DNA of 64,000 nucleotides from an uncultured Dehalococcoidales bacterium (GTDB lineage: Bacteria; Chloroflexota; Dehalococcoidia; Dehalococcoidales; BS750m-G39): contig CAYNGD010000001.1 of NCBI GenBank assembly GCA_964396965.1, forward strand, positions 67,596 to 131,595, in the 5' to 3' direction. A program made the translations under genes and the position numbers. Below the pieces are notes generated by a model. The model did not search any database. It was not told where the DNA came from and saw only the letters and a program-made list of their open reading frames with translations. Below are positions 26,646 through 44,251 of the stretch, piece by piece. Positions within the stretch are counted from its first letter, which is position 1. Each line of letters starts with the position of its first letter.

Positions 26646-29600
26646 CTACCCCAGCCCGGCGATTATCAGCTCTATCTTGGTGATGTCAAGAGCGTTGACC
26701 ACGCCATCACCGTTGGCGTCGGCGCCGGAGGTCTCGACGTCCATACCGCCGATAATCCGCTCCAACTTGGTTATATCCAGGGCATTGACCACACCATCAC
26801 CGTTGGCGTCGCCCGGTGTCGCCGAGCTAATTTCCACCGAATCGCCCGCCCAGCTCGCCTCTATCTCCCCGGCCTGATTGTCGGAGAGAACGCCGTTGGA
26901 CAGGGTTATGGCGCTGCTGTCACCCTCGGAACCGACGACATGAAAGTGCAGTACTGATAGATAGCCGGAGCCGCTTACCCCGGCCACCCCGGGGACGTTC
27001 TGGATTACCCGGTACGTCCCCGAGCTTATCTCGTTGTACATGTCAACCGGCACTGTGGTCGAGCCTATCAGCCCCGGAGTTACCTCGTCCAGGCGCAGCA
27101 CCGTCGGGTCGAAGGTAACGTCGTAGTTGCCGGAGTCAAAGTCAGTTACCTCGGTGATATCGACGGCGGCAGTGAAGTCGCTGTCGTGAGCAGCGGTAGC
27201 CGGTGCGTCGATGCTGACGCTGACTCCGGGCTGGGCGCCGCTGACCTCCAGCGTCACCGGCACGGTGACCGAAGCCTCGTCGGGATCGTTGCTGGCGACG
27301 ATTATCTCGGCGTTATAGGTGCCGGCGCTGAGGCCGGTGGTATCTACGGTAACTGTTATCGGCTCGGAACCACCCGCCGCCACCGTGCCCGAAGTGGGGC
27401 TCTCGCTCAGCCAGGAGCAGTCCGGGTTAGTCACGCTGAAGCTGGCACTTGCCTCATCAAGCAGGGTCTGTCCCGAGACATAGACATCGGCAGTGATGGT
27501 ATAATCACCCAGCACCGCCTCCGCCGGCAGGCTGTAGGTGAAATTACAGCTGCTCACCTCGCCCGCCGCCACGGTTATCGCTGAGCTGTCCTCAAACACC
27601 GCTGCCCCCTCCGGGTCCGCCACATTAACGGTAACGGTGCCGTCGGTCAGGTCGGCATCACCGCCGTTGCCCACGTCAACATAGATGGTCACGTCTTGCT
27701 CGGCCAGGTAGCTGTCGCTGTCGGTAAAGAGGGTCACAATGCTCACCTCGGGAGAGCCGATTATGGCGCCGGTAGTCCCGTAATAGAAGATTACGTTCTG
27801 GGACTGGCCGGCGGAGAGAGTACCCAGCTCCCAGTACATGCCCACCGCGGTATCCGAGGTTATTGACTGGCCTGAGGTTATGGAATAGGCGAAGGGAGTA
27901 TAATAGATATCCGGCCAGTAGGCGAACTGCACCTTATAAGGCTTGTTGTTGGCGTCAAAGGTACAGTTGGAGGTCAGCGTTGGAGCGGACAGGCTGTCGG
28001 TGGCCTGCCAGTAGTTAAATACCGGATTATTGTACTCCTGCTCGGTGGTGACATCGCCCACCCCCGGCACGATAAAGGGAGCACCGTCGTTGTAGGCCAG
28101 CATGGTGTCGAGGAGAAAGCGTAGCTCTACATCGTGGCCGGCGCTGTCGTTATTGGTAATAGTAGCCTGGTATTTGGTGGTATTCGGCTGCAGGGTCAGC
28201 CTCAGTGAGACGCCGACATCAGTCGGCAGCGACCACTGCGTTATGATGCTGTCGCCGTCTATAGTGGGAGACTGGGTCACGTAGCTGTCCATCACCGAGA
28301 AATCCTGGTAGTAATCGCTGCCGTCCAGCCGCACCGTCATGTAGGAGCTCCAGGGATAGGGATAGCCGTAGAGCAGCAGCATCTCATCGGCGGTGGCCTC
28401 GGTATAGCGGCCAATGCCGTTGTAGTCGGGGAGGTCCTCAACCGAAATGCCCATGTCATAGTCAGTGTTGACCAGGTTCAGGGTACGGCTCTTCTCAGAG
28501 CTCTTCTCTTTTTTAAGCGCCGACGGGTTGCCCTCGGTGCCGTTCGGCCCTGAATCGCCGCCTGCCTCCTGGTCGCTGATGTCATAGCTGAGCTCGCCGC
28601 TGCCGTCGTTGCCGATGGTCAGGGTGTAGTCTTCGATAGTATCGGAGGGCAGGGTCATCTCAAAGCTGGCCGGAGAGACGGTGATATCGGCCACACCGGG
28701 GGTGGTGAAGAGGATGTCATAGAGGAAGGCGCCCCAGTGGGTATCGGTGCTGAAGAGGACGTCAGTCTCGTAGTCGGAGTAGTAGTTGTCCGAAGTCTCC
28801 GGGTAGTAGATGGATATGCCGTGAGAGCCAGCCATCGAGGCGGTGTGGCCCTCGGCGATAACGGCGTTGGTTACCGCCGTCATCACGTCAGCGGCAGCGT
28901 CCCTCACCGCCTGGCTGATGGTGGCATCCTGGTTTACCAGCTGGGCGAAGTGGTAGAGGTCAATGTAGTAGTAATAGTAGTACTCCTGCGCTGAACTCCT
29001 GGCCGTTTCAATGGCGTCCCAGTCGCCGGGGGCGTTGATCATGGCCTGGGCAAAGCTGTCAACCGCCGTCGACAACGCCTCCATATAGTCCAGGTTCACC
29101 GCCGACTGGGTTATGTCCCAGGAAGAGCTGTAGGAGTCCATGTAGTCATTGACTATCTGAGTGCCCAGCTCGGCGGGTGTCATCGCCGGGTCGGCGGCCA
29201 GAGCACCGAGGGTGGCGGCGTAGTCCCAGCCGTCGCCGGGCTCGGTCTCCTCCGAACCTATAGTTATGTCAACCATGGGAGAGTCAGCGCTGCCCATCAC
29301 CTGATAGGCCACCTCGGCCATCTGCATCAGGCAGGCGTCAAAGCCGAGGATATCCAGCGTCTGGCCGGTGCTGGCGTTGGCCTCGTCCAGGGCGCTGCGC
29401 AGTTCAGTCATGGTCAGCTCGTCGCCGGACTGGTCATCAATGCAGACGGACTTCACTGAATTGCCGCTCTCCTCCCTCTCCCGCCAGCCGCTGCCGTGGT
29501 TCCAGAGCACCAGGGCGTAGTGCCGGGCGGGGTAGCTGGTCACCGCCCACTCGATAAAGCTGGTAAGCACCGCCGGGTCGCCCATATTGACCTCGCCCAG

Positions 29601-31775
29601 GTCTGCCACCACCGGGGAGTTGATGATCGAAGTGTCAGCGTCCTGGGTGACGTAGAAGCGCTTGGCCCCGGTCCAGTTGCCGTTGCTGGTGTCATCGGAA
29701 GAGGCCTGTTCGGCGCGGTCCATCTGGACCACAATCTTGACGTTATCGGTAGAGCCGACGGTCTCCATCTCATTGAAATCGTCAATACCAGCGCTCTCCA
29801 GGTTGTTATCGGCGTCAAGATAGACCATAAACAGCCAGTCCGCCTCATAGTCGGCGGCGGTGGCAGCTATCGCCGCCTGTACATCAATCAGGCCGTAGCC
29901 GTCAATATCATCGTTGCTATCCGCCGAGCTGGCCGTTGACTGGAGCAGGCTTCTAACATCGGCGGGGTGTCCCTTCAGTTCCGGGTCGGCCTCGAGTAAC
30001 AGCGCCGCCGCCCCGGCGGCAATGGGAGAGGCCATACTGGTACCCTGCATCACGTAGTAGTCCGCCGGGCCGGAGCCGTTCAGGTCCAGGCCGTCGTTGT
30101 CAATAAAATAGGCGCTGGCACCGCCAGGCCAGGGATAGACATCCTGGTCGCGCGCCGAGATTATGGCGCTGCCCGGCGCCACAATATTCGGCTTCTGGGG
30201 TGCGCCGTCATCCACCCTCGGCCCGCGGCTGCTGAAATAGGCCATGGTGCCCACCGTCAGCTCGGGGTTGACAAAGTGATAGCTGGTCCCGTCATAGGCC
30301 GTCCAGTTCTTGCGGCTGGTGTAGGCGCCGACGGCGATGGCATCCTCGGCATCAGCCGGTGAACTAAGGGTGTAGAAGGGGTCGGGGCTGTGAAACTCCA
30401 CCGAAGCCCCGCCGCTGGCAATGCCATCAAAGTAGATGTGGAAGAACTGCTGATTATCCGAGTTGTTGGTCACCTTAAGGTAGTAGGTCGAGCTTCCCGA
30501 AGGCAGGTAGTAGTACCAGCCGGCTTCCGGGCCGTAGCCGGAAAGCTCATGCTCGGTGCCCTTCCAGCTCTCCTCCTGGTCACCCGCCCAGCTATTACCC
30601 AGAGCCGTCTGGGCGGAATCATAATAGGTCAGGGTCAGGTCGTTGCTCTCGGCCAGGCCGTCGAACCAGACCAGGTTGAAGCCCAGACCGGCATTACCGC
30701 CGGTGGAGCCAGTAACATCGACCTGGATAAAGCCGGTGGTGCTGTGAGCGCTGGCCGTGCCCGAGTAGTGCTCGCCAGCATCGGCATCATTACCCGCCGA
30801 GATAAAGACCACCGCCCCCTGGCTGAAGGCGTAGTCCACCGCCTGGGCGGTCTGTCTGGTGCCGTCATGGTAGTCCCCCCAGCCGCCGTAGCTCATGGTG
30901 ATGATATCGGCATCATAGGTATCCACCGCCGCCTTGATGGCGTTGGTCATGGCATCAAGCGAGGCGCTGCCGGTGGTATCGTTGCCAATCTTGAGAAAGA
31001 CAAGGTCGGCACCCGGGGCCATACCTTTATACTCACTGGCGGCCCCGGCGGACTGTGTTCCCCGCCCCAGCGCCGAGCCGGTGACATGGGTGCCGTGGCC
31101 GGTGACGCTGTTGGCGATGGTGTCGTCCAGCACCGGCCAGTTTGAGTAGTCCTTGCTGGCTACCGGCGCCGGGATATCGGGGTGGGAGGTGTCCAGGCCG
31201 GAATCGAGCACGGCTATCCTGACGCCCTCGCCGGTATAGCCCGAGCCCCAGACGTCGTCGGCGTTGATGGCGGCGGCGGCCAGGTCATTCTGGGGCTCCA
31301 GCATCTGCTCGGCGGTATCCAGCCGGGCGATATAGTCTTTAGTCGCTAATTCGCCGAGCCTATCTACCGGCATCTCGGCCACGATAAAGCCGGTGGGGAA
31401 CTCCCCTACCGGCGGTATCCAGGAGTCGGGGTAAGGGGTAACGCCGAGCGCCTCAAGCTCATTTAGCTGCTTGGCCGTCGGCTCCTGTGCCATGTGGATA
31501 AACACCCGCTGCGTCTCCAAGTCTCTAGTTTTCATACCTTTGGCCCGCATCACGCTCATATCAGCGGCAGCCAGCGGAAGCTGCTGGCAGCGCAGCTTGG
31601 CCTCCACCTGCAGAGCCAGCAGTGAGCTCACCTTGGCCTCTGGCTCAGGCTTAGAAAATGAAATCGCCTGAGGTTCATTTGGGGGTGGGGAAAGAGCCTG
31701 AACACCGGGCATAGTACCAAGGGTGAGTGCCAATAAAAGGGAAAAAACACCCAAAATCTTTAAGGGGGTTTTCAT
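26646..31775 (-). CDS. Giant secreted multidomain protease: propeptide, S8 subtilase, C11 clostripain-like domain, beta-sandwich modules, cohesin-like module, dockerin
   Basis: 1709 aa. AAGGAGG RBS and signal peptide MKTPLKILGVFSLLLALTLGTMPGVQA. S8 triad at D191 (AVLDSG), H227 (GHGTH), S580 (GTSMASP). C11 dyad at H760 (LWNHGSGW), C815 (GFDACLM). C-terminal cohesin-like and dockerin segments. Confidence 0.9.
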   Translation of the reverse strand: MKTPLKILGVFSLLLALTLGTMPGVQALSPPPNEPQAISFSKPEPEAKVSSLLALQVEAKLRCQQLPLAAADMSVMRAKGMKTRDLETQRVFIHMAQEPTAKQLNELEALGVTPYPDSWIPPVGEFPTGFIVAEMPVDRLGELATKDYIARLDTAEQMLEPQNDLAAAAINADDVWGSGYTGEGVRIAVLDSGLDTSHPDIPAPVASKDYSNWPVLDDTIANSVTGHGTHVTGSALGRGTQSAGAASEYKGMAPGADLVFLKIGNDTTGSASLDAMTNAIKAAVDTYDADIITMSYGGWGDYHDGTRQTAQAVDYAFSQGAVVFISAGNDADAGEHYSGTASAHSTTGFIQVDVTGSTGGNAGLGFNLVWFDGLAESNDLTLTYYDSAQTALGNSWAGDQEESWKGTEHELSGYGPEAGWYYYLPSGSSTYYLKVTNNSDNQQFFHIYFDGIASGGASVEFHSPDPFYTLSSPADAEDAIAVGAYTSRKNWTAYDGTSYHFVNPELTVGTMAYFSSRGPRVDDGAPQKPNIVAPGSAIISARDQDVYPWPGGASAYFIDNDGLDLNGSGPADYYVMQGTSMASPIAAGAAALLLEADPELKGHPADVRSLLQSTASSADSNDDIDGYGLIDVQAAIAATAADYEADWLFMVYLDADNNLESAGIDDFNEMETVGSTDNVKIVVQMDRAEQASSDDTSNGNWTGAKRFYVTQDADTSIINSPVVADLGEVNMGDPAVLTSFIEWAVTSYPARHYALVLWNHGSGWREREESGNSVKSVCIDDQSGDELTMTELRSALDEANASTGQTLDILGFDACLMQMAEVAYQVMGSADSPMVDITIGSEETEPGDGWDYAATLGALAADPAMTPAELGTQIVNDYMDSYSSSWDITQSAVNLDYMEALSTAVDSFAQAMINAPGDWDAIETARSSAQEYYYYYYIDLYHFAQLVNQDATISQAVRDAAADVMTAVTNAVIAEGHTASMAGSHGISIYYPETSDNYYSDYETDVLFSTDTHWGAFLYDILFTTPGVADITVSPASFEMTLPSDTIEDYTLTIGNDGSGELSYDISDQEAGGDSGPNGTEGNPSALKKEKSSEKSRTLNLVNTDYDMGISVEDLPDYNGIGRYTEATADEMLLLYGYPYPWSSYMTVRLDGSDYYQDFSVMDSYVTQSPTIDGDSIITQWSLPTDVGVSLRLTLQPNTTKYQATITNNDSAGHDVELRFLLDTMLAYNDGAPFIVPGVGDVTTEQEYNNPVFNYWQATDSLSAPTLTSNCTFDANNKPYKVQFAYWPDIYYTPFAYSITSGQSITSDTAVGMYWELGTLSAGQSQNVIFYYGTTGAIIGSPEVSIVTLFTDSDSYLAEQDVTIYVDVGNGGDADLTDGTVTVNVADPEGAAVFEDSSAITVAAGEVSSCNFTYSLPAEAVLGDYTITADVYVSGQTLLDEASASFSVTNPDCSWLSESPTSGTVAAGGSEPITVTVDTTGLSAGTYNAEIIVASNDPDEASVTVPVTLEVSGAQPGVSVSIDAPATAAHDSDFTAAVDITEVTDFDSGNYDVTFDPTVLRLDEVTPGLIGSTTVPVDMYNEISSGTYRVIQNVPGVAGVSGSGYLSVLHFHVVGSEGDSSAITLSNGVLSDNQAGEIEASWAGDSVEISSATPGDANGDGVVNALDITKLERIIGGMDVETSGADANGDGVVNALDITKIELIIAGLG
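26649..26813 (-). other. Dockerin (two Ca-binding repeats)
   Basis: GDANGDGVVNALDITKLERIIGG...ADANGDGVVNALDITKIELIIAGLG. This is a duplicated D-x-N-x-D-G-x-x-N-x-x-D loop plus helix. Confidence 0.8.
26814..27227 (-). other. Cohesin-like module inside the protease
   Basis: 138 aa (VSVSIDAPATAAHDSDFTAAVDITEVTDFDSGNYDVTFDPTVLRL...YLSVLHFHVVGSEGDSSAITLSNGVLSD). It is a paralog of the three modules in 36596-39313. Confidence 0.65.
28895..29843 (-). other. Clostripain-like (peptidase C11) domain of the 1709-aa protein
   Basis: WLFMVYLDADNNLE, then H760 (29496-29498) in WNHGSGW and C815 (29331-29333) in FDACLM. The C-terminal domain boundary is approximate. Confidence 0.7.
29856..31262 (-). other. 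Subtilase (peptidase S8) domain of the 1709-aa protein
   Basis: Catalytic codons are D191 at 31203-31205, H227 at 31095-31097 and S580 at 30036-30038 (checked against the DNA). A large insert of about 250 aa lies between the oxyanion Asn and Ser. Confidence 0.85.
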
Positions 31776-31909
31776 AGCTGCCTCCTTTTAATTTGTGGAC
31801 AGTTGTGCACCAGTATAGCACATTTTTTGCCCACTGTCAACGAAAAGAGGCGCTAATTTATAGTACTTTTGGGTGACTGTTGGGCAACTTAAGGCAACTT
31901 TGGCGCCTT

Positions 31910-32635
31910 TTAGGCCAGCGGCTCTGAAGCTTGCTCGGCAGAGTCCAGCCGGACTATGTAGGCCTTACCCATCAGCTCGTCGAGCTTATCTATGGGCATA
32001 TCAGCCACCAGAAAGCCGGCAGCAGGCCCTCCTGCGGTGGCTATCCAGGAATCGAGGTAAGGGGTAACGCCGAGCGCCTCAAGCTCTTTTAGCTGCCCCG
32101 CCGTAGGCTCCTGGGCCAGGTGGATAAACACCCGCTGCATTGTCAGGTCGGCTGTGTTCATACCCATCGTCTGCATCTGCTCCAGCCTCTCCGGGGTGGG
32201 ATCAGCCAGCTGCTGCCGCCTTAAGTCTATCTGGAGCAGGAGCCGGCTGGTGGCCTTGGTCGCCTCTACCTCTACTTCTTCAGCCACCAGATAGGGCTCA
32301 CCCTCATCAGTCAGCTCAATGCGTCCGGTAACCTTTATCGGACGGCCGATATCATCCATGGGGTTAAGGTCGCCAGCCGCTTTCCCGCTAACGTAGAGCC
32401 AGCCGGTGTCGTCTTCAACCAGCCAGTCGCTGCGCGTTAGCGGCGGACTGCCGTGACCCTCCTTCCAGCCCTGATACACCCCCTCAACGGCGACCGTCTG
32501 CCCCCGGTAATGGCTGGGGTCGGCCCTTATCTCCCCGATGGTGGCCCCGGCGGGAGGGGTTGGCGGGCAGGCGGTCACCAGCAGGACAGCCAGCAGCGCC
32601 AGTATAACCAGTTTGCCATTCAATAATCTGCGCAT
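31910..32635 (-). CDS. Lipoprotein with a C-terminal copy of the protease propeptide (I9-inhibitor-like)
   Basis: 241 aa. Lipobox LLVTAC. The C-terminal ~110 aa (QRVFIHLAQEPTAGQLKELEALGVTPYLDSWI...FLVADMPIDKLDELMGKAYIVRLDSAEQ) aligns with aa 60-165 of the neighbouring protease. Confidence 0.75.
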   Translation of the reverse strand: MRRLLNGKLVILALLAVLLVTACPPTPPAGATIGEIRADPSHYRGQTVAVEGVYQGWKEGHGSPPLTRSDWLVEDDTGWLYVSGKAAGDLNPMDDIGRPIKVTGRIELTDEGEPYLVAEEVEVEATKATSRLLLQIDLRRQQLADPTPERLEQMQTMGMNTADLTMQRVFIHLAQEPTAGQLKELEALGVTPYLDSWIATAGGPAAGFLVADMPIDKLDELMGKAYIVRLDSAEQASEPLA

Positions 32636-32711
32636 CGTTCTCTAATTATAGCAAAACGGGGCCAGCCCTCGGCTGCTTTCAGCCGAGGGCTTAAACCTGC
32701 TATCTACCTAA

Positions 32712-33410
32712 TTAGTATGCCCGGCTTCTGGCCACTATGAAGGCGATAATCAGCCCCAACAGAACCACGCCGCCGATTACCAGCCAGAGGACCGGCACAC
32801 CGCCGACGCCGTTTGAAGGCGCTGGCGGCGGCAGCGGTGCTGAGGCGCCGGTATCCGGTGGTGTTGAGCCACCAGCGTCAGGGGGCGTCGAGCCGCCGGT
32901 ATCCGGTGGTACTGAACTGCCGGTATCCGTGGGTGCCGGGGCAGTTACATCTGGTGGCGTCGAGCCGCCGGTGTCCGGTGGTGTTGTGTTAATTGGTTCC
33001 TCGGGCTCTTCGGGGGTAGCGCTTTCCTCTATGGTTGCCGACAGGTCTAGTTCGGTCACCTCGCCGCTGTGCCACTGGGCGGTCTGCCCGGTAGAGAAAC
33101 CGTTGACATAGAAGGTCACGGTAGCCCCTTCGGCGATGTCCCCCTGGACAATGAGCTTGGGCTCCAGCGGGTCGGCGCCGCCGCCGTACTCACCCTCAAC
33201 GGTAATCTCTATCGGGTTGTTGCCAACCCCGGTGGTAACCCCCTCTCCTCTCGCCTCGACCTCGGTCCCCACCGGCGCCGGGCTGCCGTTTATCTCGACG
33301 GTACCGTAGAAGGCGTGGGGCAGCGCCGGGGCATTATCAGCATAGGCCGGGCTGACCGCCGTCGCCAGCAACACCGCCAGAAGAATAAAGGCAAACATCT
33401 TCGTTTTCAT
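32712..33410 (-). CDS. Secreted, C-terminally anchored protein with a Pro/Thr-rich stalk
   Basis: 232 aa. Signal peptide ...AVSPAYA, an N-terminal domain ALPHAFYGTVEINGSPAPVGTEVEA (also at the N-terminus of 39447-40949), TPPDTGGSTPPD repeats, and a C-terminal TM helix. Confidence 0.8.
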   Translation of the reverse strand: MKTKMFAFILLAVLLATAVSPAYADNAPALPHAFYGTVEINGSPAPVGTEVEARGEGVTTGVGNNPIEITVEGEYGGGADPLEPKLIVQGDIAEGATVTFYVNGFSTGQTAQWHSGEVTELDLSATIEESATPEEPEEPINTTPPDTGGSTPPDVTAPAPTDTGSSVPPDTGGSTPPDAGGSTPPDTGASAPLPPPAPSNGVGGVPVLWLVIGGVVLLGLIIAFIVARSRAY

Positions 33411-33506
33411 TGCTTTCCTCCTTTGGTTATTTTTAACTCCCTTCTAGCTTTATTTACCTCCCCACCCCTACCCACCGCCGGCTCGACCTGCCAGCGGCGG
33501 GTATTT

Positions 33507-36500: not shown

Positions 36501-36575
36501 AAAAGGGGAAAGTGCCATGCCCAGAACAATCAGGACAGGCACCAGTATCCTATAAATCGTTTTTACTTTCCCCAT
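33507..36575 (-). CDS. Large secreted right-handed beta-helix protein (putative S-layer or wall protein), paralog 1
   Basis: I trimmed the track ORF to the ATG at 36575 (MGKVKTIYRILVPVLIVLGMALSPFMAVETARA), which removes the overlap with the upstream gene. It has PbH1-type repeats (ISGNTFTNGG, ITISGNTITGQKGKGIYLAG, ITGNTITSATSYG) and is collinear with 41078-44251. Confidence 0.8.
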   Translation of the reverse strand: MGKVKTIYRILVPVLIVLGMALSPFMAVETARASSVSNAWVELSDGTALNSTGTALEYVIHFTTTTALSGGRDTITVSFPNGSTDMAGEEGSEYAFDLPASIDKDYVAVDPDGALTTTTGYTDCYADPDVGTYRVRLTVPEDIAAGASPYIKFETGADITSAAQSKTESGDLCFYRVKVETSQDTVPVYSEYFYLGSTAVSGVDHLTGYPNPATVGTAAGYKFEFTVGSSGALTGGSGTITVIFPSGTTVPASASMSYVQVDADGSAGTYSLTPCTVDPACHPASRTVTLTVPQSVADDANVYVYFTAGFGLVNPTESASAAKVKIFTSAEPQYATAATGYAVTSGNATKLGFANVNGTYSDDATMINMYSSTIYLQLQDQYRNIKAPGSDLTASLSSTSATGRFYSAADSQISSATLYDGTGDPDGTTAGQFSFLYKDTTAGTHTITATAGGYTQASWTITVAPAVALYDTSDELVGSYSPTATAPVVESASANSGDYVQNAINDALPGETVRLGDGIYELDTALTVAKAITLESASGAAVTLRPTTTLAQAIEITATGSATYGVTIDGITFERLRSGTVFTDGIYNSSADYFTIQNCVFSYIYNQGIRLVSTSAAFTEGTISGNTFTNGGGDPPASTDAAVDVRASASYAVSSITISGNTITGQKGKGIYLAGNSSTYTVSSITITGNTITSATSYGLQGDTYTATVSVTGNSLTGGYSDGIYVSGTAYTIKKNVITGNLGDGVDVELTSSSHLINYNDIYDNTGYGVYVPSSVSTVDGRYNWWGDASGPSYTAATGASVTVSNPEGTGENITDRVTYYEWLYKPIADVIADNAAYYCRAVSLNVGWNTLSAPIILDSSTDTVGEVVDLDKVVIAYWYDAADADDDGSYWEQVTADYELAPCDAIYIKMNAADSVLLKYNAVDISLPTRQLYAGWNLIGLASLETKPVDDAVQSVANTPTNLPGYSQVISPSMNSQDWTYSYGQSYTDEDMLVGEGYWIYMQNDCTLVGFTVTPVEPSLD

Positions 36576-36595
36576 ATCGTTAGTAAGCCTCAACT

Positions 36596-39313
36596 CTAAT
36601 GAGTTCTTCTCCTTGTGGCCAGCCACAGGATAATCACACCGACTACGATTACGCCGGCCATTGTTCCCCAGATGATTGGCCAGTTGATGGTCGGTTTCAC
36701 CGGGGTTTCCGGCGGCGTGGTCGTTTCCGGCGGTTTCTCGGCAACGATGAAGGAAGCGCTGAGACCGCCGACCTCCACCGAGTAGGTGCCAGCCACATCC
36801 TTTAACGTGTTGAAGGTCTCCTCCTCACTGGCATCGGCGTCAAGCGATATATCCCTGGTCTCCTCCACCTCACCGTTTATCTTTAGTCTCAGCGTATAGC
36901 TACCGGCGGCATCGCCGTTGTTGGTAACCAGCACGCTGATTTTAACCGCCTCCCCGACATATACCTTGCCCGGAGAGACCGAGAGCTGGCCGGCGGTGAA
37001 AGCGGACTCCCCCGGCAGGGTGGTGAAGGTGTGCTCCTCGGACTCAGCCAGGTTGCCCGCAGCGTCGGCTGACCTGACCTGGAAGTAGTAGTTGCTGCCC
37101 GGCTTCAGCTCATCAAGGTGGATGTTATGCTGGGTGACCAGCGTGGTATCCAGGGGGGTAGTCACCGGCGGGCTGGCCCAGTACTTCACCTGGCTGTCAC
37201 TAGCCTCATTGGTGCTCCAGGCGATATCGGCACTGGTCTTGGTAACGCCGGACACCCCTACCCCGGAAATTATCGGGGGTGTGGTATCCGCTGGTGCCCC
37301 ACCACCACCGCCGCCTCCTCCGCCTCCCCCACCCCCACCACCGCCGGACGGCCGGGTGATAGTCACCGAATCGGCGACCCATACCGCCGCTATCGCCTGG
37401 GCCTGGGTGCTGGAAAGCGTGCCGTTGGTGAGGTTTATAACGCTGACATCACCCGCGGCGCCGATAACATGAAAGTCCAACGCCGACAGGTAGCCGGAGC
37501 CGGTGGCCCCGTCCAGGCCGGGCACATTCTGGACCACCCGGAATGTCCCGGCGGAAAGCTCGTTGTAGATGTCAACCGGTACTTCGATTGAGCCTATCTC
37601 ACCGGCGGTGACATCGTCCAGCCGCAGCACCGAGGCATCAAAGCTGACGTCGTACTGGCAGGCGTCAAAGTCGGTCACGTCGCTGATGCTGACATTGGCG
37701 GTGAAGTCGCTGCCGGCCTTCGGCCCATCCGGCGCGTCAACGCTGACCAAGACCGTTCCCGGCGGTATAGATTCGGTGGTAAAGCTCCAGGAATAGGCCG
37801 CGGCTAAATGATTGCCGGCGGCATCGGTGATGGTGGTGCTTAAACTGGCAGTGTAGGCGGTGTCATAGGCCAGGTTTGCCGCCGGGGTAAAGGTGGCGGT
37901 ATAGCTACCACTATTATAGGAAACACTACCTGATACAGGCGTGGAGCCAATCTTCAGGCTAAAGCTGCTGGTGGTGATGGTGGACTGGTCCAGCGCCTCG
38001 CTGAAGGTGGCCGTTATCACACTGTCCACGGCCACGTCGGTGGCATCAGACGCCGGTGAGGTGCTGATCACCGTGGGAGGTACTAAATCAGCAATCGCCA
38101 CCGTGCCTCCGCTCCATACCGCCTCTATAGCCTGGGCCTGGACGTCGGAGAGCACACCGTTGGACAGGTCTATTGAGCTGACATCGCCCTCGGTGCCGAT
38201 AACATGAAAGTGCAGCACCGCCAGGTAGCCGGAGCCGGTGACACCGGATAGGCCGGGAACGTTCTGGATTACCCGGAATGTCCCGGCGGAAAGCTCGTTG
38301 TAGATGTCAACCGGCACCGCGGTCGAGCCTATCAGCCCCGAACTAACGTTGTCCAGCCGCAGCACCGCCGCGTCAAAGCTGACATCGTACTGGCAGGCAT
38401 CAAAGTCAGTTATGCCGCTGATAGCGACATTGGCGGTAAAGTCGCTGTCGGCGGTGGCTTCAGCCGGTGCGTCAATGCTGACGGTAACCACCCCTGGCTC
38501 AGAACCGGTGGTAAAGCTCCAGGAATAGGCCGCGGCTAAATGATTGCCGGCGGCATCGGTGATGGTGGTGCTTAAACTGGCAGTGTAGGCGGTGTCATAG
38601 GCCAGGTTTGCCGCCGGGGTAAAGGTGGCGGTATAGCTACCACTATTATAGGAAACACTACCTGATACAGGCGTGGAGCCAATCTTCAGGCTAAAGCTGC
38701 TGGTGGTGATGGTGGACTGGTCCAGCGCCTCGCTGAAGGTTGCCGTTACCGTTGTATCTACCGCCACACCACTGGCTCCGCTGGCCGGTGAGGTGCTGGC
38801 CACGGTGGGTGCCGTTAAATCGGAAACGGTGACGCTATCGCCCGTCCAAGTGGCCGCTATCGGGCTGGCAGTAATATCACTGAGCACGCCGTTGGACAGG
38901 TCTATGGCGCTACTCTCACCCTCGGCGCCGAGAACATGGAAGTGCAGCACCGCCAGGTAGCCGGAGCCGGTGACACCGGATAGGCCGGGCACGTTCTGGA
39001 TTACCCGGTAGTTACCGGCGGAAAGCTCGGTGTAGAGGTCAACCGGCACCGCGGTCGAGCCTATCAACCCCGAACTAACGTTGTCCAGCCGAAGCACTGA
39101 GGCATCAAAACTGACGTCGTACTGGCAGGCGTCAAAATCGGTCACGTCGCTGATGCTGACATTGGCGGTAAAGTCGCTGTCGGCGGCGGCCTCAGCCGGT
39201 GCGTCAATGCTGACGGCGGCTTCTCCCTGCGCTAACACCGGGAACAGCGCCCCACCCCCCAGAAACAGAGCCACAATGGCTACTAAGCCCAGAATCTTCG
39301 CTATCCTTCCCAT
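36596..39313 (-). CDS. Membrane-anchored scaffoldin-like protein: 3 cohesin-like modules, 2 Ig-like modules, Gly16 linker, FN3, CARDB-like domain, TM anchor
   Basis: 905 aa. Signal peptide MGRIAKILGLVAIVALFLGGGALFPVLAQG, modules as listed separately, and a C-terminal PT linker plus TM helix (IIWGTMAGVIVVGVIILWLA) and RRRTH. Confidence 0.85.
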   Translation of the reverse strand: MGRIAKILGLVAIVALFLGGGALFPVLAQGEAAVSIDAPAEAAADSDFTANVSISDVTDFDACQYDVSFDASVLRLDNVSSGLIGSTAVPVDLYTELSAGNYRVIQNVPGLSGVTGSGYLAVLHFHVLGAEGESSAIDLSNGVLSDITASPIAATWTGDSVTVSDLTAPTVASTSPASGASGVAVDTTVTATFSEALDQSTITTSSFSLKIGSTPVSGSVSYNSGSYTATFTPAANLAYDTAYTASLSTTITDAAGNHLAAAYSWSFTTGSEPGVVTVSIDAPAEATADSDFTANVAISGITDFDACQYDVSFDAAVLRLDNVSSGLIGSTAVPVDIYNELSAGTFRVIQNVPGLSGVTGSGYLAVLHFHVIGTEGDVSSIDLSNGVLSDVQAQAIEAVWSGGTVAIADLVPPTVISTSPASDATDVAVDSVITATFSEALDQSTITTSSFSLKIGSTPVSGSVSYNSGSYTATFTPAANLAYDTAYTASLSTTITDAAGNHLAAAYSWSFTTESIPPGTVLVSVDAPDGPKAGSDFTANVSISDVTDFDACQYDVSFDASVLRLDDVTAGEIGSIEVPVDIYNELSAGTFRVVQNVPGLDGATGSGYLSALDFHVIGAAGDVSVINLTNGTLSSTQAQAIAAVWVADSVTITRPSGGGGGGGGGGGGGGGGAPADTTPPIISGVGVSGVTKTSADIAWSTNEASDSQVKYWASPPVTTPLDTTLVTQHNIHLDELKPGSNYYFQVRSADAAGNLAESEEHTFTTLPGESAFTAGQLSVSPGKVYVGEAVKISVLVTNNGDAAGSYTLRLKINGEVEETRDISLDADASEEETFNTLKDVAGTYSVEVGGLSASFIVAEKPPETTTPPETPVKPTINWPIIWGTMAGVIVVGVIILWLATRRRTH
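37298..37345 (-). other. Poly-glycine (16 x Gly) linker
   Basis: Sixteen consecutive GGN codons using mixed synonymous codons, flanked by RPS and APADTTPP. Confidence 0.95.
37358..37753 (-). other. Cohesin-like module 3 (aa 521-652), the most diverged
   Basis: VLVSVDAPDGPKAGSDFTANVSISDVTDFDACQYDVSFDASVLRLDDVTAGEIGSIEVPVD... Confidence 0.65.
37775..38011 (-). repeat. Coding repeat unit (Ig-like module), identical copy 1
   Basis: About 237 nt that read identical by eye to 38507-38743, at an offset of 732 nt (244 codons). Confidence 0.85.
38093..38488 (-). other. Cohesin-like module 2 (aa 276-407)
   Basis: Same pattern as module 1 (VTVSIDAPAEATADSDFTANVAISGITDFDACQYDVSFDAAVLRLDNV...). Confidence 0.65.
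38507..38743 (-). repeat. Coding repeat unit (Ig-like module), identical copy 2
   Basis: See 37775-38011. A third, diverged copy lies in the next gene at about 39948-40195. Confidence 0.85.
38822..39217 (-). other. Cohesin-like module 1 (aa 33-164)
   Basis: VSIDAPAEAAADSDFTANVSISDVTDFDACQYDVSFDASVLRLDNVSSGLIGSTAVPVD...GYLAVLHFHVLGAEGESSAIDLSNGVLSD. Confidence 0.65.
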
Positions 39314-39446
39314 TGCTTCCTCCTTACATCACCCTTCCACCCCCTCTTTTAGAGGGGGGAACCAGGTTCTAACATAGAATGTCACTCCTCCAGGCCCCGG
39401 TCAGGGGTCTTACCTCCTTATTCGTTTATCCTGACTAAAGCTCCTC

Positions 39447-40949
39447 TTAATCCAGGCCGGCAATAATCCTCTCCACCTTGGTAATATCCAGGGCGTTGAC
39501 CAAGCCGTCTTGGTTGGCATCAGCCCCGCCTGTTTCCGCATCCAGCCCGGCGATAATCCTCTCCACCTTGGTAATGTCCAGGGCGTTGACCTCGCCGTCC
39601 TCGTTGGCATCCCCCGGAATCACTGTAGATGACACCGTGAAGGTATCAGTGGCGTAGTTTGCCTCAGCCGTGGTGTTATGAGCAGTATCAGTGGCCCGGA
39701 CATATACCGTGTGCTCCGCATAGGAAAGCTCAGCGGTGGTAAAGGTATAGCCCTCGCTAAGGCTGTCAAAAGCACCATCACTGGCAGCAGCCACAATCCA
39801 GCTGCCATCATCAACCTTGTACTCCACCCCGGCAATATTGCTTTGGCTATCGGTAGCCGTCCCGGTGAAGGTCGGCGTAGTATCAGAGGTGGTGCCAATG
39901 CCGTTTATCGTGACCGAGGGTGGTGTAGTATCCGGTCCGGTGCCGGTGGTAAAGCTCCAGCTGGAGGCTGATGCCAGGGCGTTGCCGGCGGCATCGGTGA
40001 TGGCGGTGCTTAAGCTGGCGGTATAGGTGGTGCTCGAAGCCAGGGTGGCACTCGGGGTAAAGGTGGCAGTATAGCTACCACTATTATAGGAAACACTACC
40101 TGATACCGGCGTGGAGCCGGTCTCCAGACTAAAGCTGCCGGTGGTAATGGTCGAGGCATCCATCGCCTCGCTGAAGGTGGCCGTTACCGCTGTGGTTATT
40201 GGTACATTGGTCTGCCCGGAAGTCGGGTATCGGCTGGCCACGGTGGGCGCGGTGGTATCAACGGTAAAGCTGTCACTGGCGTATTGATCCTCGGTGTTGG
40301 TGTTACCCTGGGAATCGGTCGAACGGACATATACCGTATAACCTCCGTCAGCCAGCGCCGGTATGGTGAAGGTGTATTCCTCGCTGGGACTGTCGAAGGC
40401 ACCGTCAACGGCAGTAGCCGCCGTCCAGACCCTCCAGCTCCCGGCACCAACCTGGTACTCCACCGAGGTGATGTTGCTCAGGGCATCGGTAGCAGTACCG
40501 GTAAAGGTTGGGGTGTTGTCGTTGGTGGGGTCGGGGCTGAGCGGGATTATATCCACCACTGGCGGGGTAATATCAGTAGTAATCGCCAGGTTATGCTCGG
40601 TTACCGCCCCCGGGCTGAAGGTGTAGTCATATGACCGGCCGGTGTCGTACCCATTGATAAAAAAGGATATGGTAGCCCCGGTCTCAATCTCACCGGTGAC
40701 GGTAAGCTTGGGGTCAAAGGCACCCGAGCCGCCGTACTGGCCGGCCACAGTAGTAGTGATGCTGCCGCACTGCACGTCATTTACCTTAGCCGTGACCACC
40801 GTCCCTACCGGGGCCGGAGAACTACCTATCGTCAGTGTCCCATAGAAGGCGTGGGGTAGAGTCGGTATATCGGCATAGGCAGGGATGGCACAGAGGAATA
40901 GCGCCGCTACTATCAAAGGGCAGAGGAGCCATTTTCTCATCTTTTTCAT
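39447..40949 (-). CDS. Secreted dockerin-bearing protein with Ig-like modules
   Basis: I trimmed the track ORF to the ATG at 40949 (GGGAGGG upstream; MKKMRKWLLCPLIVAALFLCAIPAYA). N-terminal PHAFYGTLTIGSSPAPVGTVV domain, two TPTFTGTATD Ig-like modules, one SbsA-type Ig module, and a C-terminal dockerin. Confidence 0.85.
   Translation of the reverse strand: MKKMRKWLLCPLIVAALFLCAIPAYADIPTLPHAFYGTLTIGSSPAPVGTVVTAKVNDVQCGSITTTVAGQYGGSGAFDPKLTVTGEIETGATISFFINGYDTGRSYDYTFSPGAVTEHNLAITTDITPPVVDIIPLSPDPTNDNTPTFTGTATDALSNITSVEYQVGAGSWRVWTAATAVDGAFDSPSEEYTFTIPALADGGYTVYVRSTDSQGNTNTEDQYASDSFTVDTTAPTVASRYPTSGQTNVPITTAVTATFSEAMDASTITTGSFSLETGSTPVSGSVSYNSGSYTATFTPSATLASSTTYTASLSTAITDAAGNALASASSWSFTTGTGPDTTPPSVTINGIGTTSDTTPTFTGTATDSQSNIAGVEYKVDDGSWIVAAASDGAFDSLSEGYTFTTAELSYAEHTVYVRATDTAHNTTAEANYATDTFTVSSTVIPGDANEDGEVNALDITKVERIIAGLDAETGGADANQDGLVNALDITKVERIIAGLD
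39450..39614 (-). other. Dockerin (two Ca-binding repeats)
   Basis: GDANEDGEVNALDITKVERIIAGLDAETGGADANQDGLVNALDITKVERIIAGLD. Confidence 0.8.
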
Positions 40950-41002
40950 ATTTCCCTCCCCAGTTTCTTTCTTGTTTCCATCCCCAATGTTTACTAAAGT
41001 TA

Positions 41003-41038
41003 TGGGGGAGGGGGAGTTGGGGGTCCCCCTCCCCCATC
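41003..41038 (-). other. 14-bp-stem G/C hairpin between the beta-helix gene and the dockerin gene
   Basis: ATGGGGGAGGGGGA-GTTGGGGG-TCCCCCTCCCCCAT. The arms are perfectly complementary and there is no U-tract, so it may be an intra-operon processing or pausing element. Confidence 0.5.
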
Positions 41039-41077
41039 CTAAGTCAGCCAACCATGTTCACCATCAGTAAGGCTGTT

Positions 41078-44000
41078 CTAGTCAAGGTCGGGCACTATCG
41101 GCGTGATTTCAAATCCCGCCAGGGTAGCCGCATTCGACATGTAGACCCAGTAGCCAAGACCGGCGTACATGGTGTTAGTACCAGAACCGGTAGTCTCATC
41201 GACGGAGTATGTCCAGCTCGTTCCGGTGTTGCCGTACATATCTGTCTGAGCGGCATTACCCGATGGGCTAACCACCAGGGAGTAACCGGGCAGGTTGTCC
41301 GCTGTCCGGTAAACCGAAGCTACTACCTGCTTGTCATACTTGCCATCGGAGTCAAGGGCAGCCATACTAATCAGGTTCCACCCCGCATTAAGGTCTTTGC
41401 TCGGGGTAGTGAAGGCAGCGGCGTCAAACTTGAGCTGTACGTAGGTGGCCGTGCTCATCTTGACGTAGACGGCATCGCACGGGCTGAGTACGTAGCCGGT
41501 GGTTATCTGCTGCCAGCCGTTATTGTAGTAGTAGCCGATGGTCATGCCGGAAGGAATCAGCTCATCAATGGCATCGGCGGAGGAGATGAGCTTAACCGGT
41601 GTGGACAGGGTATTCCAGCCCGCAACCAGGTACATCGTGCTCGTTTGGTAGGAGGCATCGTCAGCTACCACGTCTGCCAGCGGCTTGTGCAGCCACGGGT
41701 AGTAGAAGACCCGGTCGGTGATGGTATCACCGGTGCCGTTGGGGTTGGACTTGGTAACGGTGGCACCAGTCAGAGCGGTGTAGTTGGGACCAGAGGCATC
41801 GCCGTAGTAGTTGTACCAGCAGTTAATCTCGGTAACGGCGATAGTGTCGGTTGAATCTACCTTAATGGCATAACCAGCGTTGTCGTAGATGTCATTGTAC
41901 TGGATATAGTGGCAGCCGGTATCCGGCTGACGCTCGATGCGAACCGCATAGCTGGTGCTGGTGCCGGCGCACCCGGTGATGGTGTTCTTCTTGATGGTTA
42001 TCGGGCCGTCGTGGGCCCCCTCAACCTTTATGGCGTAGCTGTAAGCGCCGGTGATAGTGTTACCGATTATGCTCAGCCCGGTACTGCTTATGTAGTCAGC
42101 GATGTCAATAGCACTGTAGCCATTGGTTATGGTGTTGTTGGTGATTTTACCAGTGGCGTCGTTGGTGCTATTGCCGCCAAAGGTGATACCGTACTGGCCA
42201 CAGTTGGTCAGCGTGTTGCCGTCTATGGTCACCCCGCTTATAGCCGAGGTACCACCGAACGCCTGACCGTCAATAATGATGCAGCCAGACTTGGCCCCAC
42301 TGCCCATATCGGGCCAGGTGGTGACACAGCTATTGAAGGTGTTGTTGCTGATGGTGGCCGAGGTTATGGTATCACTGTTGGTGAACCAGACCACACCCTC
42401 CTGAGCTGAACTGTCATCCGGCTCTATGTTATTGAAGACGCAGTTCTGCACGGTGACGTAGTCGTTACCGGCGTTGCGAATAGCCATGTCAATGTCAACC
42501 GTTACCCTCAGCCGCTGGAAGGTAAGGTTCTCAATGACTATCGGGTTGGCGGCACTGCCGTCGGTGCCCACCTCCAGCGCCTTGTCAATCTCGGCGGTGT
42601 TCCTTATGGTGGTGGACGAGGCGCCGTTGACCGAGGTCAAGGTTATCTTCTCGTTCACATTGATGTAGCTATCGCTATCCACCTCATAGATGCCATCACC
42701 CAGCTTCACCGTATCGCCAGCTATCGCCGCATCTATGGCGCTGTTGATATAGTCGGCGCCATATTTTTGGGTAGTAATGGTGGTACTACCAGCAACTTCG
42801 GCCACAGGTGAGGTAGATGTGGCAGCATAGGTATTTACCAGATTACCACTGGCATCATACAGCGAGACCGCCGGGGCCACCGTAATCGTCCAGGTGGCCG
42901 AGGTATAGCCGGTTGCCGAGAAGGTCAGGGTGTAAGTCCCGGCGGCGGTATCCTTGTAAAACACCTGCTGAGCAGCGGTAGCCGGACTTGCTGTGCTCAC
43001 GGTGATACTGGTTATCGTGGTATAAGCGCCTGAGCCAGGAGTGGCACTGGCATTCTTATAGAACGTACCAGAAGCTGAAGATGAACTTGGGGTCACCGTC
43101 ACCGAACTGGCCGAAGCCTTGGCATTGCCATACTCGTCGCCCAGGGTTATGTAGAGGTAGCTGCTGAGCATGTTAATCATAGTAGCGTCATCGGAATAGT
43201 AGGTGCTCGATAACCCAACCTCACCGTTGCAGACCATCAGCTGGGTAGCCGAGCCCGCCGAGATGGTGTGGGCGGAATCAGCCTTGACCCACTTGCCGTC
43301 CTGGCTGGTGCGCAACATACAGTAGTAGTCATCAGTAGACGCTCTCGTCGGATTGGTGATGCCGGCAGCGGAGAGTACCTTCACGTACAGGGTCTCGCTG
43401 GCCGCAGTGATAGTCTCCGAGGTGGTGGCAGTTATCGTCCTCTTGTCGGTATTAACCACGGGTGCCGAGCTGGAGGCGGTATAGGTGCTGCCATCATCGC
43501 TAAACTGGACGTTGCTGGCGGATATGGAGCCGGGAAGAGTTGTTCCCACCGGGAACATGATGGTTACCGTGTCCGTATCCGCGGTAAGGTTGGTGGCGCA
43601 GGTTGCACTTAAGCTGTACTGTGCAGCCGCTCCAGCCGTAGCCGGGCTGACAGTGGTGGAAAGTGACGAGCAGGTGCTGTCGCCCAGGGCAAAGGCACTG
43701 GACAGTACCGGGGTGGTATCCTTGGTGGTGGACACAGATACCTTGTAGGTGGAACCCTCGGTGCTGGCTGAGGTAATGTTGGTGGAAGTAATTCTCAGCC
43801 AGACATCAGTGCCGGCAGCATAGTCAAAGGGCACCAGCACCTTAACCCGGTAGCCACCGACGATGGCATTAGACGTACTTCTATACCAGTTGGCGCTAGT
43901 CACCAGGGAAGTCCCGTAGTCGGTGCTGAACTCAAGGTCAGCCGCCGCTACCGAACTGCCTACGGTAAAGGCATATGCCGAACCAGCACCCCCCATGGCT

Positions 44001-44251
44001 GCCGTACCATCAGGGAAGGTCACCGTAACGTAGTCCACCCCCCGCTCCAGGGCAGTGGTAGGCGTAAAGTGTATATAGTACTCACCGGCTGTGCTGCTGG
44101 TGGCATTTTTAGCCGAGGTAAAAGGAAACTCCACCCAGACATTGGTCACCGCGGTGGCGGCCTGGGCTACCGGCGCCAGTACCAGCACTAGGGTAGCTAC
44201 CAGGAACAGGGCCAGCCCGATACGCCCCAAAAGCTTAAACTTTCCTTTCAT
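41078..44251 (-). CDS. Large secreted right-handed beta-helix protein (putative S-layer or wall protein), paralog 2
   Basis: 1057 aa. Signal peptide MKGKFKLLGRIGLALFLVATLVLVLAPVAQA. PbH1-type repeats (ISNNTFNSC, IDGNTLTNCGQYGITFGG, ITNNTITNGYSAIDI, IIGNTITGAYSYAIKVEG). GGAGGAG RBS 12 nt upstream. Confidence 0.85.
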   Translation of the reverse strand: MKGKFKLLGRIGLALFLVATLVLVLAPVAQAATAVTNVWVEFPFTSAKNATSSTAGEYYIHFTPTTALERGVDYVTVTFPDGTAAMGGAGSAYAFTVGSSVAAADLEFSTDYGTSLVTSANWYRSTSNAIVGGYRVKVLVPFDYAAGTDVWLRITSTNITSASTEGSTYKVSVSTTKDTTPVLSSAFALGDSTCSSLSTTVSPATAGAAAQYSLSATCATNLTADTDTVTIMFPVGTTLPGSISASNVQFSDDGSTYTASSSAPVVNTDKRTITATTSETITAASETLYVKVLSAAGITNPTRASTDDYYCMLRTSQDGKWVKADSAHTISAGSATQLMVCNGEVGLSSTYYSDDATMINMLSSYLYITLGDEYGNAKASASSVTVTPSSSSASGTFYKNASATPGSGAYTTITSITVSTASPATAAQQVFYKDTAAGTYTLTFSATGYTSATWTITVAPAVSLYDASGNLVNTYAATSTSPVAEVAGSTTITTQKYGADYINSAIDAAIAGDTVKLGDGIYEVDSDSYINVNEKITLTSVNGASSTTIRNTAEIDKALEVGTDGSAANPIVIENLTFQRLRVTVDIDMAIRNAGNDYVTVQNCVFNNIEPDDSSAQEGVVWFTNSDTITSATISNNTFNSCVTTWPDMGSGAKSGCIIIDGQAFGGTSAISGVTIDGNTLTNCGQYGITFGGNSTNDATGKITNNTITNGYSAIDIADYISSTGLSIIGNTITGAYSYAIKVEGAHDGPITIKKNTITGCAGTSTSYAVRIERQPDTGCHYIQYNDIYDNAGYAIKVDSTDTIAVTEINCWYNYYGDASGPNYTALTGATVTKSNPNGTGDTITDRVFYYPWLHKPLADVVADDASYQTSTMYLVAGWNTLSTPVKLISSADAIDELIPSGMTIGYYYNNGWQQITTGYVLSPCDAVYVKMSTATYVQLKFDAAAFTTPSKDLNAGWNLISMAALDSDGKYDKQVVASVYRTADNLPGYSLVVSPSGNAAQTDMYGNTGTSWTYSVDETTGSGTNTMYAGLGYWVYMSNAATLAGFEITPIVPDLD

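Follow-up and report, generated by a model that had tools for sequence, protein, structure and literature searches.

A seven-gene cluster on the minus strand of a 64-kb stretch of Dehalococcoidales DNA (positions 1 to 64,000, hereafter the window) probably encodes a cellulosome-like surface assembly whose cargo consists of peptidase and adhesin-like proteins. The cluster occupies positions 26646-44251 and is conserved within its clade; the binding between its cohesin and dockerin modules is predicted from sequence. The genes are numbered from g7 down to g1, following the direction of transcription:

41078-44251, minus strand: g7, 1057 residues, predicted beta-helix protein
39447-40949, minus strand: g6, 500 residues, with an N-terminal 'PHAFYG' domain, two Big_13 domains, Big_5 (E 1.4e-25) and a dockerin (Pfam)
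36596-39313, minus strand: g5, 905 residues, putative anchoring scaffoldin
33507-36575, minus strand: g4, 1022 residues, predicted beta-helix protein
32712-33410, minus strand: g3, 232 residues, with a 'PHAFYG' domain, a Pro/Thr-rich linker and a C-terminal transmembrane helix (residues 200-231)
31910-32635, minus strand: g2, 241 residues, putative lipoprotein with a lipobox-like VTAC, a small N-terminal domain and a copy of the g1 pro-region
26646-31775, minus strand: g1, 1709 residues, with a pro-region, S8 and C11 peptidase domains, an unassigned region, immunoglobulin (Ig)-like domains, a cohesin and a dockerin

The original prediction described seven co-oriented minus-strand genes with short gaps, all encoding proteins with signal peptides, and its coordinates for them are correct. 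The open reading frames (ORFs) lie in a row, separated by 128, 133, 20, 96, 76 and 134 nt from g7 to g1, and Kyte-Doolittle analysis finds a hydrophobic, signal-like segment at the N-terminus of all seven proteins. The same analysis places a C-terminal transmembrane helix followed by basic residues in g3 and g5. Together with the transmembrane and lipobox features, the N-terminal segments make it plausible that g1-g7 are all secreted. The g6 start is the Met after the TTG of a longer ORF; the g4 start was set at Met18 of its ORF, and orthologues that align from residue 1 support it. Plus-strand ORFs within the cluster (e.g. 40835-41854 and 30390-31145) were rejected as genes; having no family matches and overlapping conserved genes, they are regarded as antisense artefacts of GC-rich coding DNA.

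The modules that carry the assembly were scanned one by one with Pfam hidden Markov models, with the scores given here:

38819-39223, minus strand: g5 cohesin 1, 45.8 bits
38087-38494, minus strand: g5 cohesin 2, 42.4 bits, 80% identical to cohesin 1
37355-37759, minus strand: g5 cohesin 3, 51.1 bits, 68-72% identical to cohesins 1 and 2
26826-27236, minus strand: g1 cohesin (residues 1519-1640), the fourth of the locus, 39.5 bits
39450-39626, minus strand: g6 type-I dockerin, 45.6 bits, two calcium-loop/helix segments
26649-26816, minus strand: g1 type-I dockerin, 46.0 bits
36611-36682, minus strand: g5 C-terminal transmembrane anchor, a Kyte-Doolittle segment at residues 878-901, followed by RRRTH

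Each of the four cohesins individually exceeds the curated cut-off of 24.1 bits for Cohesin (PF00963), and both dockerins that of 22.9 bits for Dockerin_1 (PF00404). Three cohesin-like modules in g5, dockerins at the C-termini of g1 and g6, and a single transmembrane helix closing g5 had all been proposed from the letters alone, and all three proposals hold. The scheme built on them, an anchoring scaffoldin with dockerin-tagged cargo, is supported for the g5 cohesins and the g1 and g6 dockerins; it overlooked the fourth cohesin, which is in the protease g1 itself. Apart from these six modules the window contains no cohesin or dockerin.

The four cohesins are 60-80% identical to each other (tblastn E 1e-47 to 1e-70), with the g1 module 61-70% identical to those of g5. 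A fold check had been suggested, and the last 199 residues of g1, a cohesin-dockerin tandem, were modelled with AlphaFold2 from a 29-sequence alignment; this is the sole cohesin modelled. Its cohesin part is all-beta with a predicted local distance difference test score (pLDDT) above 95. In the PDB, each of the top 50 Foldseek matches to it is a cohesin (E 4e-10 to 7e-6, target TM-scores reaching 0.85), with sequence identities of 12-21% for the solved cohesins. The best is 6kgf_C (E 4e-10), and the second an Archaeoglobus fulgidus cohesin, 2xdh (E 5.7e-10, target TM-score 0.81, 20% identity). The model thus confirms the predicted cohesin beta-sandwich (jelly-roll) fold for the g1 module, to which the g5 modules are 61-70% identical.

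Both dockerins consist of two complete D-x-N-x-D-G-x-V-N-x-x-D loops; the four loops read DANGDGVVNALD (twice), DANEDGEVNALD and DANQDGLVNALD. The duplicated segments within a dockerin agree at 19 of 22 residues in one and 20 of 22 in the other (g6), and the g1 and g6 dockerins are 79% identical. Near-symmetric duplicated segments are the basis of the dual binding mode of type-I dockerins. Sequence search of the PDB matches the g1 dockerin to the type-I dockerins 6kg9, 1daq and 2mte at E around 1e-4.

The scaffoldin g5 runs from a signal-like N-terminus through two cohesin-Big_5 pairs, a third cohesin, a Gly run, FN3, CARDB and a Pro/Thr linker to the transmembrane helix and the final RRRTH. 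Its Pfam content is accordingly three Cohesin, two Big_5, one FN3 and one CARDB domain; besides the cohesins only these types are found, with no substrate-targeting carbohydrate-binding module (CBM). At the DNA level the cohesin plus Big_5 pair is a tandem unit of 732-735 nt. Neither an SLH module nor an LPXTG motif occurs in g5. Homologues with three or four cohesins (893-1139 residues) come from metagenomes and metagenome-assembled genomes (MAGs) only.

The largest protein of the cluster, g1, contains two peptidase domains:

29892-31232, minus strand: g1 S8 subtilase domain, Pfam residues 182-338 and 465-628 with an insert of about 125 residues between
28722-29825, minus strand: g1 C11 (clostripain-family) domain, Pfam residues 651-1018, profile positions 1-356 of 359

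Pfam assigns Peptidase_C11 (E 4e-59) and Peptidase_S8 (E 2e-41) in addition to Cohesin and Dockerin_1. The S8 Asp/His/Ser motifs AVLDSG, HGTHVTG and GTSMASP lie at residues 187-193, 227-233 and 578-584, with SAGN at the oxyanion position; the C11 His/Cys motifs WNHGSG and FDACLM lie at residues 758-763 and 812-817. Judged by these motifs, g1 is a double protease, S8 plus C11, with both catalytic sets intact. Against the NCBIfam clostripain equivalog the C11 domain scores 116.9 bits, below the cut-off of 550, which makes it a member of the C11 family and not a clostripain orthologue. Residues 1020-1350 have no significant Pfam match up to E 1. The combination of S8, C11 and dockerin recurs in about 46 cluster representatives among the matches listed. 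Some of these proteases (P0268-P0286, 2041-2312 residues) are extended by A2M modules of the TED type (PF07678) and by others that resemble squalene-hopene cyclase (PF13243), so that a protease is oddly joined to a domain like a protease trap.

Directly upstream of the protease gene, g2 encodes a second copy of its pro-region. Residues 127-239 of g2 (31919-32257, minus strand) copy residues 48-161 of g1 (31293-31634, minus strand), with 57% identity over 115 residues (E 6e-34). The label 'pro-region' reflects the position of this part of g1 ahead of the subtilase domain and the paralogy of g1 and g2, and is to be read as putative. Up to E 1, residues 1-161 of g1 match no Pfam family at all, and the two Pfam matches of g2 are below threshold and unrelated (DUF5818, E 0.034; tRNA_anti-codon OB-fold, E 0.1). 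An orthologue of g2 (243-250 residues) always lies just upstream of the protease in the five related contigs L002, L005 and L007-L009.

The original prediction had the system built around proteases rather than glycosidases, and both the cluster and its wider dockerin family are consistent with this. Pfam and NCBIfam scans found no glycoside hydrolase (GH), polysaccharide lyase (PL), carbohydrate esterase (CE) or CBM families in the cluster proteins; NCBIfam has no specific family for g2-g7. When 1.84 billion representatives were searched by phmmer for the g6 dockerin, 423 proteins matched at E <= 1e-10; most of these have a single C-terminal dockerin, 67-88% identical to the query. Fifty representatives were scanned with Pfam, and the 30 longest with the closest dockerins also individually. 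Six of the 30 contain peptidase domains: C1 (P0397, P0398), S8 (P0430, P0459), C13 (P0432) and C25 (P0491). The S8 plus C11 family is also in the dockerin match list (P0245, P0286). Peptidases are the sole recognisable enzymes among the 30, in which no GH, CBM, PL or CE family was found; the 25 commonest of the 79 families in the 50-protein scan likewise include no GH, PL or CE family. The remaining representatives contain NHL, PD40 and RCC1 beta-propellers, Ig arrays, PKD, Big_2, Big_5, LamG, beta-helix and CARDB domains. Cohesin and dockerin share a chain in 14 of the 50, and a terminal cohesin-dockerin cassette closes 8 of the 30. This frequent cassette means that cargo could daisy-chain.

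Two further kinds of protein turned up in the dockerin search. Five (P0362-P0364, P0414 and P0470) are made up of 6-11 dockerin-like stretches in a row, with about 35-40% identity to the query, and may be called poly-dockerins. P0492 (540 residues) joins MauE/DoxX membrane domains, thioredoxin, EGF-like repeats and a C-terminal dockerin of this subtype; such a redox membrane protein would, from its dockerin, dock to the same system.

Comparative genomics had been proposed as a check on whether the gene set travels together, and it does. The gene order recurs fully or partly on seven other contigs (L002 and L004-L009), with protein identities of 40-85%. In full it reads: a divergent lipoprotein gene, an ORF of 52-55 residues resembling ribbon-helix-helix (RHH) proteins, g7, g6, g5, g4, g3, g2, g1. 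Every scaffoldin locus encodes dockerin proteins, and g6 orthologues adjoin the scaffoldin gene in L004-L007 and L009. Orthologues of g4 in L002 and L004 are 83-85% identical from residue 1. The species-representative genomes with relatives are MAGs: one from Dehalococcoidales, one from Chloroflexi and a third labelled Deltaproteobacteria. Where homologues of g7 or of the g1 S8 domain carry a name, it is Chloroflexota, Dehalococcoidales or Dehalogenimonas, which makes an uncultured Dehalococcoidia bacterium the most likely host. L002 (JAUVYB010000006.1), with g4, g3, g2 and g1 at 72-83% protein identity, comes from a MAG labelled 'Deltaproteobacteria bacterium'; because all other named relatives are Chloroflexota, this contig is probably mis-binned or mislabelled.

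The related loci also vary. In L008 and L009 the g3 position is taken by a CARDB protein whose N-terminal domain resembles that of g3, with 66-73% identity to residues 1-128 of g3. Extra single-cohesin genes (242-275 residues), of which the window has none, lie downstream of the protease in L005 (17203-17931), directly after it, and in L008 (12224-13051), after a dockerin-Ig gene. The L005 protein ends in a g3-like Pro/Thr linker and transmembrane tail, and so could be a second, minimal anchor. An N-terminal domain of about 100 residues (LPHAFYGT...) is shared by g6 (40572-40871, minus strand) and g3 (33027-33338, minus strand) at 44% identity, which puts one copy on a dockerin protein and one on a transmembrane-anchored protein. 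No Pfam (up to E 1) or NCBIfam model matches it significantly in either protein, nor does any match the rest of g3, and Pfam finds no catalytic domain in g6.

The two large proteins g4 and g7 are paralogues, 40% identical over their full length, and g4 matches Pfam Beta_helix at E 4e-19. An AlphaFold2 model of g7 (mean pLDDT 85, predicted template modelling score 0.82) has about five Ig-like domains (residues 33-480), a right-handed beta-helix (500-800) and a C-terminal domain (860-1040). Foldseek returns weak multi-domain PDB matches to it: Ig arrays, phage tailspikes, GH87, AlgE4 and the Haloferax volcanii S-layer protein 7ptp_A, the last at E 3e-4 with TM-scores of 0.11 and 0.14. A sequence search of the PDB with g7 gave no match, and Pfam and NCBIfam gave no SLH or other S-layer family. 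The g7 family has 149 matches, the named ones from Chloroflexota or Dehalococcoidales. In a 103-sequence alignment the C-terminal domain is its most conserved part (0.76, against 0.57 elsewhere). The best conserved stretch of the g4/g7 family (0.93, including the most conserved 15-mer) is the final 18 residues or so (...LAGFEITPIVPDLD), located as follows:

41078-41131, minus strand: g7 C-terminal tail (...LAGFEITPI.PDLD)
33507-33560, minus strand: g4 C-terminal tail, same motif

Despite this top conservation the g7 tail is disordered in the model, and it looks like a linear docking or sorting motif. It is plausible that g4 and g7 are envelope proteins, and g7 is a candidate S-layer-like protein; the terms 'wall proteins' and 'S-layer-type envelope', first applied to them from the letters alone, are best taken as interpretations of this kind.

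In the assembly that we favour, g5 would be exported via Sec and stay in the cytoplasmic membrane as a type-I membrane protein with its three cohesins outside. The dockerins of g1 and g6 would plug into these cohesins in a calcium-dependent manner, probably in either of two orientations. The g1 cohesin would be a further socket, from which cargo could chain or branch; a protease with its own cohesin shifts the topology from a scaffold with cargo to a possibly chain-forming network. The lipoprotein g2 would hold its copy of the pro-region at the membrane and restrain the surface subtilase in trans, either by inhibiting it or as a folding chaperone. Around the complex, g4 and g7 would form a proteinaceous envelope layer, with the conserved C-terminal domain and tail as the attachment part. 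The predicted role is cell-bound extracellular proteolysis and particle attachment, with the peptide products kept at the surface of a slow-growing anaerobe.

Several observations weigh against parts of this scheme. The modelled g1 dockerin has low confidence (two helices at pLDDT 52-62, four of five models poor), and the tandem, folded as a proxy for the complex, is hence uninformative on docking. With so little difference among the four cohesins and between the two dockerins, the sequences do not tell which binds which. No I9 or other inhibitor or propeptide model matches g1 residues 1-161 or g2 in Pfam up to E 1. Neither g4 nor g7 contains a cohesin or dockerin, their link to the complex being synteny, and the second beta-helix protein is dispensable: in L005 (9851-10081), L006 (8823-9053) and L007 (5282-5494) g4 is reduced to a remnant of 70-76 residues, in which the tail region persists (the last 50 or so residues are kept, 66% identical). 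Since beta-helix domains can be carbohydrate-active, and the g7 model weakly matches GH87, tailspikes and AlgE4, a glycan-directed activity of g4 and g7 is conceivable, and the pair could be carbohydrate-active. The dockerin representatives come without taxonomy, and it is their dockerin identity that suggests they belong to the same lineage. The nutritional role of the protease, finally, is drawn from ecology.

A more far-reaching version, which we put forward tentatively, holds that in this Dehalococcoidia lineage the cohesin-dockerin pair may have become a general, self-extending surface system. Transmembrane-anchored scaffoldins would start a branched coat in which the only enzymes are peptidases. 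The many cargo proteins that end in cohesin-dockerin cassettes, peptidases of the S8, C11 and C1 families among them, may each, once docked, offer a new socket, and the coat may use the disordered C-terminal tail of g4 and g7 as one more signal for docking or sorting.

It seems unlikely that the locus serves envelope biogenesis instead. Here g4 and g7 would be S-layer proteins and g1 a maturation or turnover enzyme, or a clan-CD transpeptidase acting on the tail, rather than a feeding enzyme, and all that the cohesin-dockerin pairs would do is keep the processing enzyme where assembly takes place. This is in keeping with g7, which opens the cluster downstream of a conserved regulator-like ORF and is the best conserved of its genes, and with the best conserved, predicted disordered end of g4 and g7, which resembles a sorting or recognition signal. 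Cellulosomal peptidases have been proposed for post-translational processing, not substrate degradation (PMC12484212), and S-layers with attached complexes are seen in cultured Dehalococcoidia (PMC10284905). However, a dockerin type shared by five peptidase families and many binding-type modules suggests that the display system is a general one; some relatives keep the protease but have lost g4; and the resemblance of g7 to a solved S-layer protein is only a weak multi-domain match.

Less probable still is an apparatus for adhesion or cell-cell contact, with Ig-like, beta-helix and beta-propeller modules displayed by way of cohesin-dockerin links to particles or partner cells and the protease as an accessory. 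Most of the dockerin-bearing representatives do carry non-catalytic, binding-type modules, g6 has no catalytic domain, and a similar role has been proposed for anaerobic methanotrophic (ANME) archaea (PMC9012536), but the S8 plus C11 protease, with its motifs intact, is the largest and a constantly retained gene of the cluster, and g2, a dedicated pro-region paralogue, is co-conserved with it. That the modules are not mutual partners at all, but generic beta-sandwich spacers and stabilising, calcium-binding EF-hand-like tails with no defined complex, is very improbable: many non-cellulosomal cohesin- and dockerin-like modules do lack a demonstrated partner and the AlphaFold2 confidence for the dockerin is low, but both module types pass curated models, share a conserved operon and often one chain across many contigs, and in the dockerin repeats high conservation extends beyond the calcium ligands to the helix positions.

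Non-cellulosomal cohesin-dockerin modules have long been known. A pair in A. fulgidus (PDB 2xdh), which we take to be AF2375/AF2376, presumably consists of one protein with both a cohesin and a dockerin and a dockerin-bearing neighbour. It is likewise non-cellulosomal; it has single modules and no multi-cohesin scaffoldin (PMC9012536), whereas the loci described here have three to four cohesins per scaffoldin, and the cluster is a seven-gene operon with protease cargo. ANME archaea are also non-cellulolytic sediment organisms, whose proteins join one dockerin to up to five cohesins and have been proposed to organise the surface; their cargo is mainly ABC-transporter substrate-binding proteins, and they have no conserved protease-centred operon (PMC9012536).

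The clostridial cellulosome (Acetivibrio/Clostridium thermocellum, C. cellulolyticum) likewise combines repeated cohesins on a cell-bound scaffoldin with C-terminal, duplicated type-I dockerins on secreted proteins, and its adaptor scaffoldins are resembled by the proteins here that have both a cohesin and a dockerin; it is such cellulosomal modules that the fold and HMM searches match. By its domain content the present cluster is not a cellulosome in the strict sense: a multi-cohesin scaffoldin and dockerin subunits are present, while there is neither GH cargo nor a CBM, nor anchoring through SLH modules or sortase. Here the anchor is a single C-terminal transmembrane helix, the catalytic cargo bears a cohesin, and the host is of the Chloroflexota/Dehalococcoidia type rather than a cellulolytic Firmicute. 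Despite the missing GH, CBM and SLH features, we infer by analogy that the cluster would work like a cellulosome.

A peptidase-bearing complex of this kind has more precedent than the original prediction implied, as two published cases show. Cellulosomes carry minor S8 and cysteine peptidases, together with dedicated protease inhibitors, serpin and Dpi (PMC12484212), to which the proposed role of g2 would be a parallel. In C. thermocellum a subtilase, the S8 protease of PDB 8x39/8x3a, reaches the scaffoldins through its tandem double dockerin (PMC12484212), and this chain matches the g1 dockerin by sequence at E 0.01. In contrast to g1, the C. thermocellum protease plays a minor, accessory part in a complex that degrades carbohydrates, and it has no C11 domain, cohesin or adjacent pro-region paralogue. 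For 'Ca. Stygibacter' (Cloacimonadota), a complex inferred from the genome has dockerins on S8/S53 serine and C25 gingipain-like peptidases (PMC8542988). As here, the organism is not a Firmicute and possesses a scaffoldin-like protein bearing tandem cohesins; it also has dockerin-tagged GH18 and GH57, CBM2 and CBM3 on a 3755-residue scaffoldin, and C-terminal domain (CTD) attachment (PMC8542988), whereas the present cluster has no GH or CBM, a transmembrane anchor, an S8 plus C11 fusion and cohesin-dockerin cassettes on its cargo. Our literature search, which did not extend to the 2009 catalogue of non-cellulosomal modules, found no paper linking cohesin or dockerin to Dehalococcoidia; co-mentions with Chloroflexi were carbohydrate-active enzyme surveys.

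One further feature upstream of the cluster may bear on its control:

44411-44578, minus strand: RHH-like ORF of 55 residues, candidate regulator, 159 nt upstream of g7

Its Pfam matches are below curated cut-offs (DUF7557, E 4e-4; VAPB_antitox, E 3e-3). It is found at the same position in relatives, 98% identical in L004, 90% in L005 and L006, and 69% in L009, and is more conserved than every structural gene of the cluster. From its sequence and position it may regulate the locus. Scans for promoters and terminators gave consensus-level hints only, among them a promoter-like site at 44750-44722.

The flanking genes are pstSCA, a thymidylate-synthase-like gene, ilvD, ilvB, leuA, rtcB and dnaE. 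These housekeeping flanks place the locus on the chromosome and, with a GC content that is even across it, led us to reject a mobile-element or phage origin; tRNA and Rfam scans of the window gave no matches. Directly downstream of g1, and convergent with it, is a plus-strand ORF of 412 residues (25380-26618), with no Pfam or NCBIfam match and 73% identical to one at the same position in L005. The thymidylate-synthase-like ORF (24702-25349, plus strand, 215 residues) scores 95.7 bits against the methanogen-type model TIGR03283, below its cut-off of 174.55, and thereby resembles an archaeal-type enzyme, here in a bacterial genome.

What is new here is the protease-centred, operon-encoded set, comprising an S8 plus C11 fusion with its own cohesin, an adjacent pro-region paralogue, a transmembrane anchor and, across the dockerin family, a frequent cohesin-dockerin cassette. 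To our knowledge, almost none of the catalogued cohesin-dockerin pairs outside cellulosomes has a defined function or partner set. In this cluster the genes of the predicted partners are neighbours in one conserved operon, with catalytic cargo and a simple anchor, which makes a small, testable system of four cohesins and two dockerins for studying the function of non-cellulosomal pairs. If cassette chaining occurs, it would be a chain-forming mode of assembly, maybe useful for designer protein scaffolds. If the cluster does encode a cell-bound protease machine, it would show how the abundant, uncultured Dehalococcoidia of sediments obtain peptides. And if the branched coat exists, it would be an unrecognised kind of cell-bound 'proteolysome', to which some of the protein breakdown outside cells in anoxic sediments could be due.

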